Virus record (IMG/VR): IMGVR_UViG_3300011337_000467
Location: 1 to 31,722 of that record
DNA: 31,722 bases
Source: a virus
Lineage: Duplodnaviria; Heunggongvirae; Uroviricota; Caudoviricetes
Direction: 5' to 3' (one strand)
Both the position numbers and the translations under genes were made by a program. Below, piece by piece: positions 19,057-30,765 of the stretch; the stretch's first letter is position 1; every line of letters starts with the position of its first letter. The notes under the pieces were generated by a model, which worked only from the letters and a program-made list of their open reading frames with translations, was not told the origin of the DNA and ran no database searches.

Positions 19057-20670
19057 ATGAAAATCTGTATTATAGGAAGTGGTTTCACTGGAATGTTAGC
19101 GGCCGCTGCAATCAAACGCAACTATCCCCACTATAATGTTGTGATGATTGCCAGTGGGCAAGAGATGAAGTTGCCCGGACTTGGATTAAGTTGTCCGCCA
19201 GGGTTTGTTAAATGGATTGCTGACTTGTTAAAAGTTCCAGCTGATACTGCTCTTGTGACAGACATTTTAACCCACACTAACTCTGTTGCCAAAACTAACA
19301 TGAAGTGGCAAAACTTTCAGTCAGCAGCTGACACAGGATTTTTTAGTGGGTTTCCGGTTGTGCCGGCTGCCGATGTTCTATTAGATCCCGGACATACCAG
19401 TCTTAATCTGTTGCCCGAATATCAATTGCCAGGTGCTGACAAATATATGTTGACTGATCTTTGGTACGAACTGTATCTAGCAGGACGCAGAACATTAGAT
19501 GATTTTGGCCCAGACATCAATCAGTTCTATTGGTATGCAAGTCAACATCGAATCTTACCTCATCACATTTGCAGTGAATGGACAATGCCATCGCTACAAA
19601 TCAACAGCTGGTCATTTGGTGAATGGTTAAAACAACGGTATCAATCACAGTTGGATCAGGTGTATGACAGCGAAGTAAAAGAAATTAAAAAAACAAATTT
19701 TGGGGGGATTCTATCTGTAACGTTAGCATCAGGCAAAGAAATAACTGCTGATTTTTATTTAGACTGTACTGGATTCAGTAGACTACTTGGCAAAGAATTT
19801 GATCTTGCATATTCCCGGCCTCCTACAGAAATCTATCATGATACCACTGTGGTTGTGGGCAATGGTTATACCGAAAATGTTGATCAAGAAATGATGCCAT
19901 ATACCACTGGTTATGGCATGGATTATGGATGGACATTTGCTATCAGCATGCAACATTGCAAAAGTTTTGGTTACAATTTTGACAGTAGTTTTATCACGCC
20001 AGACCAGGCATTGGAAGAACTAGACTCACTGAGTGATCCACACACACGCACAGTGGATCCTGTGATCATGCGATGGACTCCAGGCAGTTATCAGACTGCT
20101 CTAAATAAAAATTTTGCTTTGTTGGGTCTTGCATCAGGGTTTCTTGATCCGTTTGATGCCAACTCAGTTGCACTGCAAATTCGACAAATACAAACTCTTA
20201 TTGAACTGTTTCAATCTCCGGCAAATATTAACAGTTCTGTAAATGTCTACAATAAACGAACTAATAATTTTTATAACAGTGTGGCCGAAAGACTGGAATT
20301 CCATCAGGCATTGGCACCAAGAAATACTAGTGAATACTGGCGTAGAAATCACAACATTGCTCAAAAACGAAAACTTGAAGATTTGATATTTGCTGCCTTG
20401 GCTGATCCTGATCACTACACTCCAGCTCGTTTTGCAGGAACTTATAGACCGTACCCAATGCATTTATATCTCAGTGAGAGTTTGTATTATGGATTGGACA
20501 TGTCCAGACGCTGTAGACAAAGCAGTACAGCCATGCTACAATTAGCAGATGAATACTTTCAATCATTCAACAAATTAAATCAACATCGTGCGCAACTTGC
20601 GCCTACACAACGAGAATGGTATGCCGCACATGGCGTAGATCTCAACAACAGCGTGACATTTAGGAAATAA
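19057..20670 (+). CDS. Tryptophan-halogenase-family flavoprotein (divergent)
   Basis: KICIIGSGFTG FAD motif, DFYLDCTGFSRLL, GW.F.I, GLASGFLDP. Confidence 0.85.
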   Translation: MKICIIGSGFTGMLAAAAIKRNYPHYNVVMIASGQEMKLPGLGLSCPPGFVKWIADLLKVPADTALVTDILTHTNSVAKTNMKWQNFQSAADTGFFSGFPVVPAADVLLDPGHTSLNLLPEYQLPGADKYMLTDLWYELYLAGRRTLDDFGPDINQFYWYASQHRILPHHICSEWTMPSLQINSWSFGEWLKQRYQSQLDQVYDSEVKEIKKTNFGGILSVTLASGKEITADFYLDCTGFSRLLGKEFDLAYSRPPTEIYHDTTVVVGNGYTENVDQEMMPYTTGYGMDYGWTFAISMQHCKSFGYNFDSSFITPDQALEELDSLSDPHTRTVDPVIMRWTPGSYQTALNKNFALLGLASGFLDPFDANSVALQIRQIQTLIELFQSPANINSSVNVYNKRTNNFYNSVAERLEFHQALAPRNTSEYWRRNHNIAQKRKLEDLIFAALADPDHYTPARFAGTYRPYPMHLYLSESLYYGLDMSRRCRQSSTAMLQLADEYFQSFNKLNQHRAQLAPTQREWYAAHGVDLNNSVTFRK

Positions 20671-25955: not shown

Positions 25956-26750
25956 ATGACACAACGCATCTTAATCATGGGCCTGCCAGGCTCGGGTAAA
26001 ACCACACTGGCACGAGAATTAAAAGCACAACTTGAATCAGCCGGCAAGGTGGTGGGTTGGCTTAACGCAGACGAAATACGCGAACAGTACAATGACTGGG
26101 ACTTTTCCGAAACAGGACGTATTCGTCAAGCCAAACGCATGAGAGAACTAGCAGACAAACTGCCTGCATATGACTACATGATTGCGGACTTTGTGGCACC
26201 ACTGGTGGAAATGCGCAATGTATTCAAAGCAGACTGGACAATCTGGGTAGACACCATCCGTGAAGGTCGCTACGCTGATACCAATGCCATGTTCGTGGAA
26301 CCTGACATATACGACTTCCGTGTGCCTGAACAAAACTGTGAAAAATGGGCGGACTTTATTAAGGAGCACATTATCGACAATCGTCGTCGTCCTGTATTTG
26401 ATTTCAAACGCGAAACTGTGCAAATGCTGGGTCGTTGGCAGCCCTGGCATGATGGACATCGTGCGTTATTTGAGCGATTATTACAGCGCACAGGGCAAGT
26501 GGTAATTCAAGTGCGTGATGTGCAGGGTTGGCAGGGGTCAAATCCTTTTGAAGTGGAGCGAGTGAAATCATTTATACGCAGAGACTTAGATCCGCTATAT
26601 CAAGGCCAATACGAAATACAAGTTGTGCCCAACATTGTGCATATTGGTTGGGGTCGCGGCGTGGGTTATTCAGCAGGCGAAGAAACATTTGATGATGCTA
26701 TCACCGATATTTCAGCCACAAAAATTCGAAAAGAATTAGGATTAAAATGA
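25956..26750 (+). CDS. Fusion of CysC/APS-kinase-like P-loop kinase and HxGH nucleotidyltransferase
   Basis: GLPGSGKTT, LNADEIR, WDFS..GR.RQ..RM; C-terminal MLGRWQPWHDGH. Confidence 0.85.
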   Translation: MTQRILIMGLPGSGKTTLARELKAQLESAGKVVGWLNADEIREQYNDWDFSETGRIRQAKRMRELADKLPAYDYMIADFVAPLVEMRNVFKADWTIWVDTIREGRYADTNAMFVEPDIYDFRVPEQNCEKWADFIKEHIIDNRRRPVFDFKRETVQMLGRWQPWHDGHRALFERLLQRTGQVVIQVRDVQGWQGSNPFEVERVKSFIRRDLDPLYQGQYEIQVVPNIVHIGWGRGVGYSAGEETFDDAITDISATKIRKELGLK

Positions 26751-26971: not shown

Positions 26972-26995
26972 AATCACTGCCAGCTAAATACTGGC

Positions 26996-27454
26996 ATGTG
27001 GATTTTGCACTTTCTTCCTGACGCCTTAATTTTATGGTTTTGCAACATCTTGTTGCTGACAGGTGTTGTGCTGACTGCGGCAGGATTTTTTGCGCATCGT
27101 ATTCCCGTTATATGGCAATATCAGTTGCCCTTCAAGTTCCTGGGCATTGCACTTTTGGTCTTGGGCGTGTACTTTCGCGGCGGTTATGCTGTGGAAGCAG
27201 AATGGCGTGAGCGTGTGGCCGAAGTTGAAGCAAAATTAAAAGTTGCCGAAGAAAAAAGCGCAGCAGCCAACACAAAAATAGATACTGTGGCACAGGAAAA
27301 GATTCGCGTGATTCGTGGACAAACACAAATTGTGCGACAGTATATAGATAGAGAAGTTGTGAAGTACGACACAAAATTTCTACCAGGTGGGCAGTGTGAA
27401 ATTCCACAGGAATTCATTCAAGCACATAACAAATCAGCGGAGCGAACCAAATGA
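26996..27454 (+). CDS. Putative inner-membrane spanin (Rz-like)
   Basis: N-terminal TM segments, coiled coil AEVEAKLKVAEEKS, C-terminal QCEIP.EFI.AHN.SA. Confidence 0.7.
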   Translation: MWILHFLPDALILWFCNILLLTGVVLTAAGFFAHRIPVIWQYQLPFKFLGIALLVLGVYFRGGYAVEAEWRERVAEVEAKLKVAEEKSAAANTKIDTVAQEKIRVIRGQTQIVRQYIDREVVKYDTKFLPGGQCEIPQEFIQAHNKSAERTK

Positions 27455-28527
27455 AAATTACGGACGTCATTCTAGAAGCAGCTAACTCTGCTCAACAAGC
27501 AGCCAAGGCTATTGCCATGAAAAAGGCTGGAAAGAAGCCCAAACAAGGCGTGGCGGAAGGCTCTGAGTCAGATGCTTACGGTAACACTGGTGAAAAGCAT
27601 GAATGTGGTTCTTGCGATGGCACTGGAATAGTTTCATATGATGAACTTGCGAAGGCTGCGGAATACGATGATGTGTGCCCAGAATGCGGTGGCAAAGGCT
27701 GGGTAAGAGATAAGGAATCATTGAAGAAGAAAGGCATGGCGGAGGGCTCGGGCGAATCATACATGATTATAAGAACTGATGCTGAAGGCAAGAAGGATGT
27801 GTTTGCTGGTAACTTTGACACGTATGAACAAGCACAAAAAGAATTAGATGATTGTTTGGCACACCCATTGCATACCAAGTACAAGCAAAAGTTTGAAATC
27901 AAAAGAAAAGGTGGAGAGCAAGGCATGGCGGAGGAGGCTAGTCCAATGATTAAACCACCTGCCAATAGATTTGATAACAAACAAGAAGCATTTGATTACG
28001 CTAAAGAACATGGCGGCAAAGTTTTTAAGAGCACATATATTGATCCCAATACCGGAATTAAAAACATAATTTTTGTTGTTAAAAAAGAACAAGGTGTGGC
28101 GGAACACACAGAACTTGCTGAAGAATTTGATTTAATTGAATCAATTGTTGAAATGATTGCTGAACACAATGGTGTGGATGCTGATGTAGTATGGGCGGAT
28201 TTAGAAAGTCTCACAGAAGATGAACTGTATGTGTTTGCTGTGACTTCTGACCCACTGATGGAAGACTGGCAAAAGGCCAACAAGCGTGATAAAACAGATG
28301 GCATGAGTCAAAAGGCTGTGAATGCCTATCGCAGAGAGAATCCAGGTTCAAAGCTAAAAACTGCTGTGACCACCAAGCCTTCTAAACTAAAGAAGGGCGG
28401 CAAGGCCTCCAAGCGTAGAAAGAGCTACTGCTCACGCAGCCGCGGACAAATGAAAATGCACAGCATCTCATGTGCCAAGACTCCGGACAAGGCCATTTGC
28501 AAAGCACGTAGACGTTGGAACTGCTGA
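27451..28527 (+). CDS. Modular putative head/internal polyprotein with (Q/K)G(V/M)AE linkers, CxxCxGxG zinc finger and basic C-terminal domain
   Basis: Leader MKITDVILE; four linker repeats; C-terminal AY.RENPGS.LK...RRKS.C.R...ARRRWNC resembles DUF6321-type domains (recalled, not searched). Confidence 0.75.
   Translation: MKITDVILEAANSAQQAAKAIAMKKAGKKPKQGVAEGSESDAYGNTGEKHECGSCDGTGIVSYDELAKAAEYDDVCPECGGKGWVRDKESLKKKGMAEGSGESYMIIRTDAEGKKDVFAGNFDTYEQAQKELDDCLAHPLHTKYKQKFEIKRKGGEQGMAEEASPMIKPPANRFDNKQEAFDYAKEHGGKVFKSTYIDPNTGIKNIIFVVKKEQGVAEHTELAEEFDLIESIVEMIAEHNGVDADVVWADLESLTEDELYVFAVTSDPLMEDWQKANKRDKTDGMSQKAVNAYRRENPGSKLKTAVTTKPSKLKKGGKASKRRKSYCSRSRGQMKMHSISCAKTPDKAICKARRRWNC
27544..28106 (+). 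repeat. Four dispersed in-frame copies of AAGGYRTGGCGGAR
   Basis: caaggcgtggcggaagg 27544, aaaggcatggcggaggg 27730, caaggcatggcggagga 27919, caaggtgtggcggaaca 28090; spacings 186, 189, 171 nt. Confidence 0.9.
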
Positions 28528-28528
28528 C

Positions 28529-28840
28529 ATGAAACACCATCGTGATCAAGGTCGGGTGTCCACTCTTATTGTCATTGTGTTAATGCTAATGGTTGTGATA
28601 GCCCTGTCTGCTTGTTCCACAGTAGTACCTGTCACTGCACGATTCCCAGCGCCACCAGGGCAGTCATACTTGCAGGCCTGTCCCAATCTGCAGAAACTAA
28701 AAGATCAACCACAACTGAGTGATGTCAGTCGAACCATCAACATAAACTACAGCACCTACTATGAGTGTGCTGTGAAACTGGATGCTTGGATACAGTGGTA
28801 TTCAGCACAAAAACTCATATTTGAAAGTGCAGGAAAGTAA
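28529..28840 (+). CDS. Putative outer-membrane spanin lipoprotein (Rz1-like)
   Basis: Signal peptide with lipobox LSAC; Pro-rich FPAPP; CP.L...N...Y.EC..K..AWI.WY. Confidence 0.75.
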   Translation: MKHHRDQGRVSTLIVIVLMLMVVIALSACSTVVPVTARFPAPPGQSYLQACPNLQKLKDQPQLSDVSRTININYSTYYECAVKLDAWIQWYSAQKLIFESAGK

Positions 28841-28842
28841 GC

Positions 28843-29751
28843 ATGGGATTGACCATTTCAGGTGGATTGACAATTACTGGCGGAATAAGGTTGGCCACTC
28901 CGCCACAAACTGCATCTACTGATTTCTTGCTGGTAGGTGGTGGTGGCGGAGGTGGTGGTCGTAGGGGTGGGGGTGGCGGAGCTGGAGGCTACACTGCGTA
29001 CACTGCCCAAACTTTAACTAGGAAAATAACATATACTTTTACTGTGGGAACAGGCGGAACAGCAGGTGGTGGTGCAGGTGATCCTGCCGGCGGGACCGGC
29101 GGCACATCTAGTTTGTCTGGGCCCGACATCACAACTCTCACAGTTAATGGCGGAGGTGGCGGAGGATCCAGCACAAGCGCAACTGCCGGCAACGCTGGCG
29201 TAGGTGGAGGATCTGGCGGTGGATCAGGCGGTGGAACTACCGCTGCTGGTGGATCAGGAACTGGTGGACAAGGCAACAATGGCGGCGCAGGTTCTGGAGG
29301 CACTAACCGTGGTGGTGGCGGAGGTGGTGGTGCAGGTGCTGTTGGTGGCAATGGTGCAACAACACCAACTCCTTCACCTGCAGGCACAGGCGGTAACGGA
29401 GCAACTTGGCTGGATGGCGTTACTCGCGGCGGCGGAGGCGGCGGCGGCGGTTATTTTCCTGGCGGAAACTCTAGAGCAGCAAGCGGTGGGTCTGGTGGCG
29501 GCGGTGCTGGCGGAGAAGTGATCAATACAGGCCTCGGCACAGCAGGCACCAATGCTCTGGGTGGTGGAGGCGGTGGAGGCGGGGCCGGTACTGCAACAGG
29601 TGGTGCCGGAGGCTCGGGCGTTTTTGTGTTGCGTTACGAAGACACGTTGTCTGACATACAATCAATAACCTGCGCTGATTTTACAGGTCCCACACTGTCG
29701 GGTGGATACAAATACTACACATTTCGAGCATCAGGAAGTTTTGTATTTTAA
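28843..29751 (+). CDS. Glycine-rich domain virion-associated protein
   Basis: FLLVGGGGGGG...GGGGAGG start and GG.GGSGVFVLRY end of the Gly-rich domain; N-terminal GLTISGGLTITGGI. Confidence 0.8.
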   Translation: MGLTISGGLTITGGIRLATPPQTASTDFLLVGGGGGGGGRRGGGGGAGGYTAYTAQTLTRKITYTFTVGTGGTAGGGAGDPAGGTGGTSSLSGPDITTLTVNGGGGGGSSTSATAGNAGVGGGSGGGSGGGTTAAGGSGTGGQGNNGGAGSGGTNRGGGGGGGAGAVGGNGATTPTPSPAGTGGNGATWLDGVTRGGGGGGGGYFPGGNSRAASGGSGGGGAGGEVINTGLGTAGTNALGGGGGGGGAGTATGGAGGSGVFVLRYEDTLSDIQSITCADFTGPTLSGGYKYYTFRASGSFVF

Positions 29752-29768: not shown

Positions 29769-30383
29769 ATGAGCATACTATCACTCGAACAACTAAAACA
29801 AATGATAAAGAATCCTCACGTTGAACACTGGCACGAAGCACTGGATCAACTGTTGGATGACTACGAAATCAACACTCCACTACGTGTGGCACATTTTGTT
29901 GCACAATGCGCTCATGAGTCAGGAAATTTTGTTTTTATCAAAGAAAATCTCAATTACAAGGCAGCCAGCTTACAAAAGATTTTTGGTAAGTATTTTCCCA
30001 CTCCTGAATTGGCAGCTCAATACGCCAACAAGCCCGAACGCATTGCCAACAGAATATATGCCAACAGAATGGGCAACGGACCAGAAACATCAGGTGATGG
30101 TTTTAGATACTGCGGTCGTGGTCTAATTCAGTTGACAGGCAAGGACAACTACACATTCTTTGCAGGCAGCTTGAATATACCTGTAGAAGAAGCGTCAGAT
30201 TATCTGGCCACATTTGAAGGTGCCGCACAGTCAGCCTGTTGGTTCTGGGAACAGAACAATCTCAATAGATTTGCTGATGCCAACGATGTCAAGGGACTCA
30301 CACGGGCCATCAATGGTGGCTACATTGGTTTAGAAGATAGAATCAAGCACACAGAACATGCATTACACGTACTAGGAGCATGA
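29769..30383 (+). CDS. Glycoside hydrolase family 19 endolysin
   Basis: AHF.AQCAHESG.F...ENLNY, YANRMGN, GDG.RY.GRGLIQLTGK.NY, SA.WFW, TRAINGG.IGL.DR. Confidence 0.93.
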   Translation: MSILSLEQLKQMIKNPHVEHWHEALDQLLDDYEINTPLRVAHFVAQCAHESGNFVFIKENLNYKAASLQKIFGKYFPTPELAAQYANKPERIANRIYANRMGNGPETSGDGFRYCGRGLIQLTGKDNYTFFAGSLNIPVEEASDYLATFEGAAQSACWFWEQNNLNRFADANDVKGLTRAINGGYIGLEDRIKHTEHALHVLGA

Positions 30384-30696: not shown

Positions 30697-30765
30697 TAAG
30701 GAAAAGATATGGCCAAAACAGAGTCGGGAGTTAACTAAATATTTGATTACACCTAGGACCACAAA

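Follow-up and report, generated by a model that had tools for sequence, protein, structure and literature searches.

A modular polyprotein gene of a freshwater jumbo phage exchanges small cassettes at an in-frame linker and may encode head-packaged cargo

How is a gene put together in which several unrelated small modules follow one another behind a single short leader, and what becomes of its product? The question is raised by the gene P0001, which lies in a 31,722-nt stretch of DNA (positions 1 to 31,722 of IMG/VR record IMGVR_UViG_3300011337_000467; this whole stretch is called the window below). The window is the first third of a 95.7-kb record, whose completeness was judged to be 27%, and its source is an uncultured freshwater giant (jumbo) phage related to T4. 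An initial annotation had described the gene as a capsid polyprotein built of cassettes, with a leader MKITDVILE/A (a slash marks a predicted cut) and four [QK]G[VM]AE linkers between dissimilar modules, and this layout was confirmed by reading the open reading frame (ORF) and by a pattern search. The analysis showed that the linker is the place where cassettes are swapped, lost, duplicated and moved, both between phages and between cargo genes. On balance, we think it probable that the product is a modular cargo polyprotein, which this T4-related jumbo phage packages and cuts with its head protease and whose cassettes are exchanged at the linker.

The repeat AAGGYRTGGCGGAR occurs four times in the 31.7-kb window, and every copy is located in ORF 27451-28527 (27545-27558, 27731-27744, 27920-27933 and 28091-28104), while 0.07 copies are expected by chance and four were reached in none of 100 shuffles. 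The encoded linkers read QGVAE (amino acids (aa) 32-36), KGMAE (94-98), QGMAE (157-161) and QGVAE (214-218), and the linker core extends over about 18 nt in frame, CAA GGT/C GTG/ATG GCG GAA/G GGC, encoding QG[VM]AE-G. According to the initial annotation, the linker is conserved as DNA, with alanine always written as GCG; this held for all four copies in the window and for 51 of the 56 linkers that were taken from 64 distinct coding sequences, compared with 8% GCG elsewhere in the same genes. By the same comparison, valine is GTG in 40/43 linkers (background 35%) and glycine is GGT or GGC in 56/56 (background 75%), and the glycine that frequently follows the linker is nearly always GGC. Such codon bias is beyond the reach of selection at the protein level and suggests that linkers have been exchanged or homogenised as DNA. 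Linkers that adjoin one and the same cassette, on either side of it, were seen with GGT GTG as well as with GGC ATG. The glutamate codon is GAG in all five linkers that precede the EASP cassette, while their 5' half varies, which hints at crossovers within the linker in a sample too small for more than a hint. A scan of the own 95.7-kb record found [QK]G[VM]AE in the polyprotein gene and in one further gene (46988-48208) only, and [QKE]G[VM]AE occurs twice in the 347-kb genome G003, both times in leader-bearing genes. A role of the linker as a Chi-like, genome-wide recombination hotspot was considered and rejected, because the motif is restricted to leader-bearing genes.

Since the variable codon of the linker is GTG or ATG in 53/56 cases and is preceded by AAGG, the linkers might also be read as internal translation starts, from which several small proteins would arise by internal initiation and not by proteolysis; gene callers indeed began truncated contigs at linker ATGs (P0018-P0020). 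However, AAGG stands 1 nt from the start codon, far off a working Shine-Dalgarno spacing, whereas the real start of the gene has GGAG 8 nt upstream. The GCG and GGC codons, irrelevant to initiation, are equally conserved, and internal initiation would neither remove the upstream parts nor explain the glutamate-ended joints of distant homologues, which makes this explanation very improbable.

The alignments place the exchange points at the linkers. Among the internal ends of high-identity BLASTP alignments, 51% fall within 6 aa of a linker, compared with 8% for random positions. When the window gene was aligned as DNA with ten relatives, both ends of the blocks lay within a few bases of linkers, and the gene-relative blocks 94-293, 281-654 and 466-654 are whole cassettes including both linkers. 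Between the window gene and its relatives (including L091-L098), the cassettes are 97-99% identical in DNA, the leader 80-85% and the C-terminus 87-95%; near-identical cassettes on diverged backbones indicate that cassettes have recently moved between backbones. Cassette 1 recurs at other array positions in L093, L094, L096 and L098 (97-98% DNA identity), cassette 2 in L092 (99%) and L091 (90%), and cassette 3 in L092 (two copies), L093, L094 and L095 (96-99%). Relatives with flanking genes 93-95% identical carry different cassettes at the same locus (i-spanin, gene, o-spanin, endolysin). Lake and freshwater contigs from other studies follow the window as far as 27562, 27737, 27747, 27915, 28091 or 28260, where they pass over into other known cassettes; in one lake-metagenome contig, position 27918 is followed by 28090, an exact linker-to-linker absence of cassette 3, and another contig runs from the zinc-finger cassette through a linker into DWQKAN. 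The linker had been proposed as a recombination point for in-frame cassettes, and this proposal is borne out by the content of orthologues, in which modules are gained, lost and swapped at the repeat and differ at the same locus, as well as by the DNA breakpoints, the synonymous conservation and the contigs from other lakes. Homologous or microhomology recombination, with the frame always kept, is the likely route of exchange.

All homologues come from short-read metagenome assemblies, and shared cassettes of 170-190 nt could let assemblers switch between strains, so that the mosaic might be an artefact of chimeric contigs at shared repeats, if the repeat is not a matter of chance altogether. 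However, the repeat stands four times where 0.07 copies are expected, and the 18-nt linker is far below assembly k-mers, so that real reads span every junction of cassette, linker and cassette. Assemblies of many samples, in ENA, JGI and Logan, contained variants. Runs of three studies carry precisely the arrangement of the window; all 12 such runs were flagged as possible sources of the window DNA, and this recurrence is therefore no independent confirmation. Taken together, an artefactual or chance origin is hardly credible.

The protein search covered 5.8 billion proteins, with 8000 candidates scored, at least 7080 of which were homologues at E<=0.001; the best 120 listed are 205-614 aa long, with DUF6321 in all. 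Homologues have the leader, MKITD[IV]ITEAA..KKAGKKPKQGVAE, and the C-terminal 140 aa in common, while the modules in between differ, each closing in QG[VM]AE. The basic helical segment behind the leader (aa 10-36) was found in 76 of the 172 unique homologues examined. An exhaustive search with the C-terminal 140 aa only returned 2340 cluster representatives at the 50% identity level; the best 150 of them are 63-99% identical over the matched stretch (all but three at least 70%), and they form separate clusters because the remainder of the protein differs.

Cassettes were counted in 264 proteins as segments with G[VM]AE on both flanks. The 204 cassettes fall into 90 families, including 55 singletons, with a Chao1 lower bound of about 179; 88 different cassette strings are present among 136 proteins, and 27 families were found with more than one pair of neighbours. 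The phage population thus holds a library of at least 90 cassette families. The modules had been described as similar in length, which is right for the window copy (62, 63 and 57 aa for cassettes 1 to 3) and fails for the homologues (36-253 aa, median 91). In three independent lake data sets, the summed contig depth was 1000-2000 over the DUF6321 part and 20-200 over the cassettes (10 to 50 times); an excess over the constant end would fit many co-occurring variants, summed contig depth being a poor measure.

Scans of the cassettes against Pfam and PHROGs gave almost no matches, and in P0001 the Pfam matches are limited to DUF6321 and a sub-threshold zinc finger. The zinc finger ascribed to cassette 1 stands as a motif, CxxCxGxG being present twice, and it falls short as a family member (Pfam DnaJ_CXXCXGXG, PF00684, 21.6 bits, under the 32.7-bit cut-off). 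The two small alpha/beta domains that had been proposed received weak support: AlphaFold predicts a confident beta-beta-alpha-beta fold for cassette 2 (residues 103-153; predicted local distance difference test (pLDDT) about 80 at 101-150) and a low-confidence alpha-beta-beta arrangement for cassette 3 (residues 177-211). The full-length model has a mean pLDDT of 44.7, with cassette 2 as its sole usable part. Among the modules of homologues, Pfam recognised M48 peptidase, twin-arginine translocation (Tat) signals and a cytidylyltransferase-like domain only, and most modules have no family. In the metagenomic homologue P0024, which has no usual leader, a cytidylyltransferase-like enzyme of about 190 aa is joined by QGVAE to the zinc-finger cassette, the acidic block and DUF6321; a neighbouring gene may have been captured here into the cassette array.

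Modules flanked by the repeat were also found elsewhere, as had been anticipated. Gene 46988-48208 of the own genome has GMAE and GVAE joints and two cassettes in common with homologues of the polyprotein gene. It belongs to a row of three leader-bearing genes past the window (G000, 41631-48711, plus strand): the first encodes a 1668-aa polyvalent protein (MHITE/L...) with a basic NFADG... tail, the second (46988-48208) begins MIITDLFE/S..., and the third (48208-48711) begins MRISDIVTE/N..., its module being fused to an acidic block and DUF6321 in L002. In G003, the slot between the spanin genes is occupied by a different leader-bearing gene (43329-43901) without DUF6321, whose last module is the one that follows QGVAE/DQLAE/ in gene 46988-48208 of the own genome, and the DUF6321 gene of G003 is located after the polyvalent protein. 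These arrangements show that cargo modules, including the C-terminal domain, move between leader-bearing genes within a genome and between phages. Tandem leader genes are present in G001-G005, and in distant complete relatives the DUF6321 gene stands within a row of genes starting M[KR]xxEF[LI]xE (e.g., MRAQEFLAE and MRASEFLIE).

According to previous studies, the internal proteins (IPs) of T4 carry a 10-residue capsid targeting sequence (CTS), MKTYQEFIAE, which is removed by the protease gp21, and gp21 cuts after L/I-X-E (PMC8442874, PMC9026906). Processing of T4 proteins is prevented by Asp as residue 10 of the CTS (PMC9026906). Foreign proteins are packaged once they are fused to the CTS, and the internal proteins form a hypervariable injected set that counters host defence (PMC8442874, PMC9026906, PMC3012670, PMC2839356). 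Read directly from the T4 genes, IPII and IPIII start MKTYQEFIAE/A, and the leader of IPI ends ...ITE/A. The leader of P0001 (MKITDVILE/A; MKITDIITE/A in homologues) likewise resembles an N-terminal propeptide of about 10 aa with a hydrophobic-x-Glu end. The leader motif is present on six G003 ORFs, with about 0.13 expected by chance (an estimate). Peptidase_S77, the T4-type prohead protease, and gp23 were found in all five related genomes of 317-357 kb that have a homologue, four of them at least 98% complete, and gp23 is also present in G007, which has the same spanin-slot synteny. The protease of G003 (204405-205052) has 35% identity with T4 gp21, and its GEVDHP and GVSSRG align with GELNHP and GVSSRG of T4. 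In the relatives' capsid proteins, YL[KA]E followed by N or S stands just ahead of the conserved core, and the nearest cultured capsid proteins (62-67% identity) are those of Vibrio phage 2.275.O, Pseudomonas phage PA5oct and Serratia phage BF. The own record is collinear with the complete 347-kb jumbo-phage genome G003 (84 of 135 ORFs match, median 63% aa identity).

The leader and the C-terminal acidic block with DUF6321 form a constant frame around a variable array of unrelated small cassettes. If the parallels with T4 hold, the leader would carry the precursor into the prohead core, where the T4-type S77 protease would cut after the glutamate residues that end the leader, the linkers and the [LIVM]-x-E motifs of the acidic block; the predicted cut motifs in P0001 are [VM]-A-E, I-L-E and L-M-E. 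The cassettes and the DNA-binding-like DUF6321 would then stay behind in the capsid, each as a small protein of its own, and be delivered to the next host together with the DNA; until its removal by cutting, the acidic block may keep DUF6321 neutralised.

The two constant C-terminal parts had been described accurately. The acidic helical block that closes in PLME was confirmed by its charge count (no K+R, 15-16 D+E) and by three predicted helices (pLDDT 70-84), and in some homologues it directly follows the leader. The very basic, cysteine-containing C-terminal domain, with its four Cys, belongs to DUF6321 (35.7 bits against a gathering score of 28.5; residues 279-356, profile positions 2-72 of 72). 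Across 42 aligned homologues, most DUF6321 columns are invariant while the acidic block ahead of them varies, and the joint between the two is [LIVM]-x-E/DWQKAN or, in some, ...E[ST]E/AWQKAN. Near-complete relative genomes hold one DUF6321 copy each. The model of the last 140 aa (pLDDT 69.5) consists of three acidic helices, a partly disordered basic stretch and a helical hairpin. Foldseek with this model found nothing in the PDB at E<=0.001 and thus gave no fold assignment, and against BFVD the top matches by name were other DUF6321 proteins; a BFVD row for S-SCSM1 named 'Virion protein' (E 0.72) is unverified and was not used as support. In our reading, the acidic block could mask the putatively DNA-binding, basic DUF6321 until the block is cut to pieces.

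DUF6321 occurs in at least 500 cultured aquatic phage records. In cyanomyoviruses its gene lies between terS and terL, and ORF137 of cyanophage S-CREM2, a DUF6321-terminated protein with a ...MNE/DWQKAN junction, was detected in CsCl-purified virions (PMC10665884, Table 3). Many distant DUF6321 genes (e.g., L007, L021, L055 and L075) are chains of basic modules of 25-40 aa with two Cys each, such as WSQKYKSSINC..AHCAG, KCWKGKHKEG..NNCVPNE and GPKNCWPGHRK..NDCE; many of these modules close in NE, NES or xE, and none has a Pfam family.

Some modules of homologues carry export signals at internal positions. In one homologue, a Tat signal above the Pfam cut-off lies at residues 119-139, directly after ELDE, and further internal Tat signals follow QGVAE or SVDE in others. 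A Tat signal in this place is best understood if whatever precedes the joint is removed, which suggests that some cargo may be re-addressed to the periplasm after the predicted processing. Polyproteins with Tat after a glutamate-ended joint include L059:3402-4616, L004:5200-6429, P0002, P0005 and P0011, and in L004 the Tat signal is followed by an M48 metallopeptidase module.

The product might nevertheless stay whole, as an uncleaved beads-on-a-string protein in the virion or elsewhere, with QG[VM]AE as a flexible linker and DNA joint whose likeness to a protease site is coincidental. The recombination evidence fits such a chain equally well, and the linkers are structureless, at low confidence, in the AlphaFold models. 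Three further observations speak for an intact chain and against packaging and cutting. The P3 residue of the linker is V or M, compared with L or I in the T4 consensus. Inside the cassettes, [LIVM]xE still occurs about once per 100 aa, its depletion being marginal (88 observed vs 104 expected, z -1.6 to -1.8, p about 0.03), and [LIVM]xD and [LIVM]xK are over-represented there. No S77 or gp23 match was found on the own record, so the protease is inferred from relatives; as the record is a 27%-complete fragment, this absence is uninformative either way. Other points bear against the preferred reading in general. The synonymous conservation of the linker could partly reflect recent common descent, not selection for recombination. 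Cyanophage homologues of DUF6321 have no leader, and the domain is also present in T7-like cyanopodoviruses and pelagiphages, standing alone in HTVC100P. T7-like podoviruses and pelagiphages are not known to encode a T4-type protease. The association of DUF6321 with virions thus needs no processing by CTS and gp21, and the domain has a function that is independent of T4-type processing. The detection of S-CREM2 ORF137 amounts to four peptides at 4.1% coverage (PMC10665884). The polyprotein gene lies between two spanin genes, outside a head module; since T4 ipII and ipIII adjoin the endolysin gene e, this neighbourhood is no objection in itself.

Against an intact chain, the T4-CTS-like leader is common to several tandem genes, and distant homologues without QGVAE keep a [LIVM]-x-E-type joint before DUF6321. 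The Tat signals behind internal joints would stay buried in an uncleaved protein, and the six [LIVM]xE motifs within 52 aa of the acidic block resemble T4 core proteins that are cut to many pieces. We consequently hold the uncleaved chain to be rather unlikely, and capsid targeting with cutting by the head protease, for which the evidence is circumstantial, to be probable. A more far-reaching version of the cargo reading, which we put forward tentatively and with less confidence than the reading itself, is that the 18-nt linker is dual-purpose: as DNA, an in-frame crossover site, integron-like but within coding sequence; as protein, a prohead-protease site. A jumbo-phage population would then share a pool of well over a hundred small injected proteins, some of them re-addressed by Tat to the host periplasm after cleavage, and any combination would be translatable, packageable and separable.

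The gene is embedded in a lysis cassette (Table 1), in the order i-spanin, polyprotein, o-spanin, glycine-rich protein and GH19 endolysin, which is kept in close relatives; a holin-like gene then follows in three of them (L092, L097 and L098). The i-spanin stop codon overlaps the start of the polyprotein gene (ATGA), and the o-spanin gene begins 2 nt past the polyprotein stop codon and is directly downstream in relatives too. An i-spanin-like gene directly precedes the DUF6321 gene in L091, L093, L096, L097 and L011 (88-95% aa identity), and the endolysin is 85-95% identical in aa in relatives with the same synteny. In this setting, and with no module of a capsid protein, the label 'capsid polyprotein' was too strong.

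Table 1. Features of the polyprotein gene and of its lysis cassette in the window.
Feature	Position	Strand	Details
i-spanin-like gene	26996-27454	+	152 aa; N-terminal membrane segments and coiled coil; phrog_4952, E 1.4e-7
Whole polyprotein gene P0001	27451-28527	+	358 aa; frame open
Leader MKITDVILE, aa 1-9	27451-27477	+	T4 CTS-like; predicted cut after E9
Basic helical segment, aa 10-36	27478-27558	+	AANSAQQAAKAIAMKKAGKKPK; closes with linker 1, QGVAE (27544-27558)
Cassette 1, aa 37-98	27559-27744	+	CxxCxGxG x2 zinc-finger module; closes with linker 2, KGMAE (27730-27744)
Cassette 2, aa 99-161	27745-27933	+	Small beta-beta-alpha-beta module; closes with linker 3, QGMAE (27919-27933)
Cassette 3, aa 162-218	27934-28104	+	EASPMIKPP... 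module; closes with linker 4, QGVAE (28090-28104)
Acidic helical block, aa 219-271	28105-28263	+	Closes in PLME; charge count; six [LIVM]-x-E motifs
DUF6321 domain and stop codon, aa 272-358	28264-28527	+	Pfam PF19846; about 27 K+R; Cys 327, 341, 350 and 358
o-spanin, Rz1/LysC-like lipoprotein	28530-28840	+	Lipobox LSAC; Pfam LysC 28.9 bits (cut-off 27); phrog_456 Rz-like spanin
GH19-type endolysin, same lysis cassette	29769-30383	+	phrog_181 endolysin, E 2.5e-76

The place of the gene between the spanin genes and upstream of endolysin and holin, which is kept across the clade, raises the possibility that the product belongs to the lysis system, with the cationic DUF6321 or the cassettes acting on the envelope or regulating lysis. 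Some phages are known to disrupt the outer membrane at lysis by means of cationic peptides. Some cassettes have Tat signals or membrane segments, and the stand-alone DUF6321 gene of pelagiphage HTVC100P lies about 1 kb downstream of a peptidase M15 gene. However, the spanin slot of G003 holds a leader gene free of DUF6321, with DUF6321 elsewhere, so the domain is not tied to spanins; the cyanomyovirus gene sits between the terminase genes and its product was detected in virions; T4 internal protein genes are likewise found beside the endolysin gene; and most cassettes have no export signal. A function in lysis is thus improbable, and packaged cargo is the reading that we prefer.

Several further observations concern the surroundings of the gene. 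The T4 late-promoter consensus TATAAATA was not found within the window. A sequence like the late-promoter core, CTAAATA, stands at 26984-26990 (5 nt ahead of the i-spanin start codon) and at 30735; with five copies in the window against 3.1 expected, it shows no enrichment, and the timing of expression stays unsupported. The slot between o-spanin and endolysin (window 28843-29751) is variable, a variability noted also with L096: its content is one Gly_rich_2 protein in the window, three ORFs (each about 310 aa) in L091 and a LamG-like protein in L095, where another LamG-like gene stands behind the endolysin. At 25956-26750, two genes ahead of the i-spanin, an APS-kinase-like P-loop kinase (N-terminal) is fused to a cytidylyltransferase-like C-terminal part (phrog_10255, 'kinase'), and this fusion gene is kept in relatives; kinases and cytidylyltransferases recur in cyanophage virion proteomes (PMC10665884). 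A 537-aa ORF at 19057-20670, just upstream of the clamp-loader gene, is similar to phrog_2928 'tryptophan halogenase' (E 9e-59), an unusual auxiliary gene in a phage replication module.

If the inferred steps are true, the gene would represent a natural plug-and-play system by which a phage head is loaded with a variety of small proteins: the leader would address the cargo, and the joint would both swap and separate it. It would explain how first-strike proteins, candidate factors of anti-defence or host takeover, diversify in abundant freshwater jumbo phages much faster than the genomes diverge, and it would provide a large catalogue of candidate injected effectors without known family, a testable role for DUF6321 and a design rule for engineered multi-cargo phage capsids. 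Even if cleavage is wrong, in-frame cassette exchange at a synonymously conserved linker is a clear and unusual mode of protein evolution.

The initial annotation knew of no description of such a system. We likewise found no paper describing cassette polyproteins as capsid cargo and no publication on the DUF6321 family, which is without described function; the ingredients, namely CTS-targeted hypervariable internal proteins, polyvalent proteins and motif-mediated shuffling in T4-type phages, are already known. A close parallel is the set of T4 IPI, IPII, IPIII and Alt with CTS and gp21, which shares with the polyprotein a short leader ending in hydrophobic-x-Glu (MRAQEFLAE/N in relatives), hypervariable non-structural cargo, a gene beside the endolysin gene and, in relatives of the polyprotein phage, S77 and gp23. 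More than 30 IP variants have been reported, and IP loci are shuffled at conserved flanking sequences (PMC2839356). However, every T4 internal protein has a gene and a leader to itself and is cut a single time, while here many modules stand in one ORF behind one leader with a repeated internal site; the joint of IP shuffling is intergenic, while here it is an in-frame coding linker with V or M at P3, and the cutting is predicted. BLASTP against T4 IPI-III, gp67, gp68 and gp22 found nothing better than E 0.4, so that no similarity to IPI-III extends beyond the leader.

Polyvalent proteins of phages and conjugative elements (Iyer et al. 2017; PMC5512222) also combine several unrelated domains in one phage polypeptide of variable architecture, with proposed delivery along with the DNA. 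P0001 has such an architecture in its five dissimilar modules, as have its homologues with 88 architectures among 136, and the classic 1668-aa polyvalent protein is encoded 10 kb downstream in the same genome. Polyvalent proteins are long chains of recognisable enzyme domains, for which processing by embedded metallopeptidase domains was proposed, and their description has 'prohead' once and 'linker' nowhere in its text (PMC5512222). Unlike them, the polyprotein consists of small modules (36-253 aa), mostly without Pfam family, with a DNA-conserved linker in a single-copy gene with fixed ends, and the Pfam scan of P0001 found none of the characteristic polyvalent effector domains (MPTase, ParB-like, GNAT, ART, lysozyme and others).

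Exchange between related phages at short conserved flanks of variable segments is also known from PeSL cassettes (PMC2839356, PMC4122927), but these are intergenic promoter and stem-loop elements that move whole ORFs, whereas the repeat described here is itself translated, in frame, within a single ORF. In gp38 adhesins (PMC3157838), glycine-rich motifs likewise lie in frame, as coding sequence, between hypervariable segments; they form the structural core of a single domain and are fixed in order and number, whereas here whole modules vary, from none to six or more, and the motif is protease-site-like. The DUF6321 proteins of cyanomyoviruses share the domain at the end of longer variable proteins and the ...NE/DWQKAN junction, and they differ in having neither leader nor QGVAE cassettes. 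Compared with the T4 internal proteins and the polyvalent proteins, what is new is the combination of one leader for many small modules, one DNA-conserved joint, and a single-copy gene with fixed ends and a free middle.

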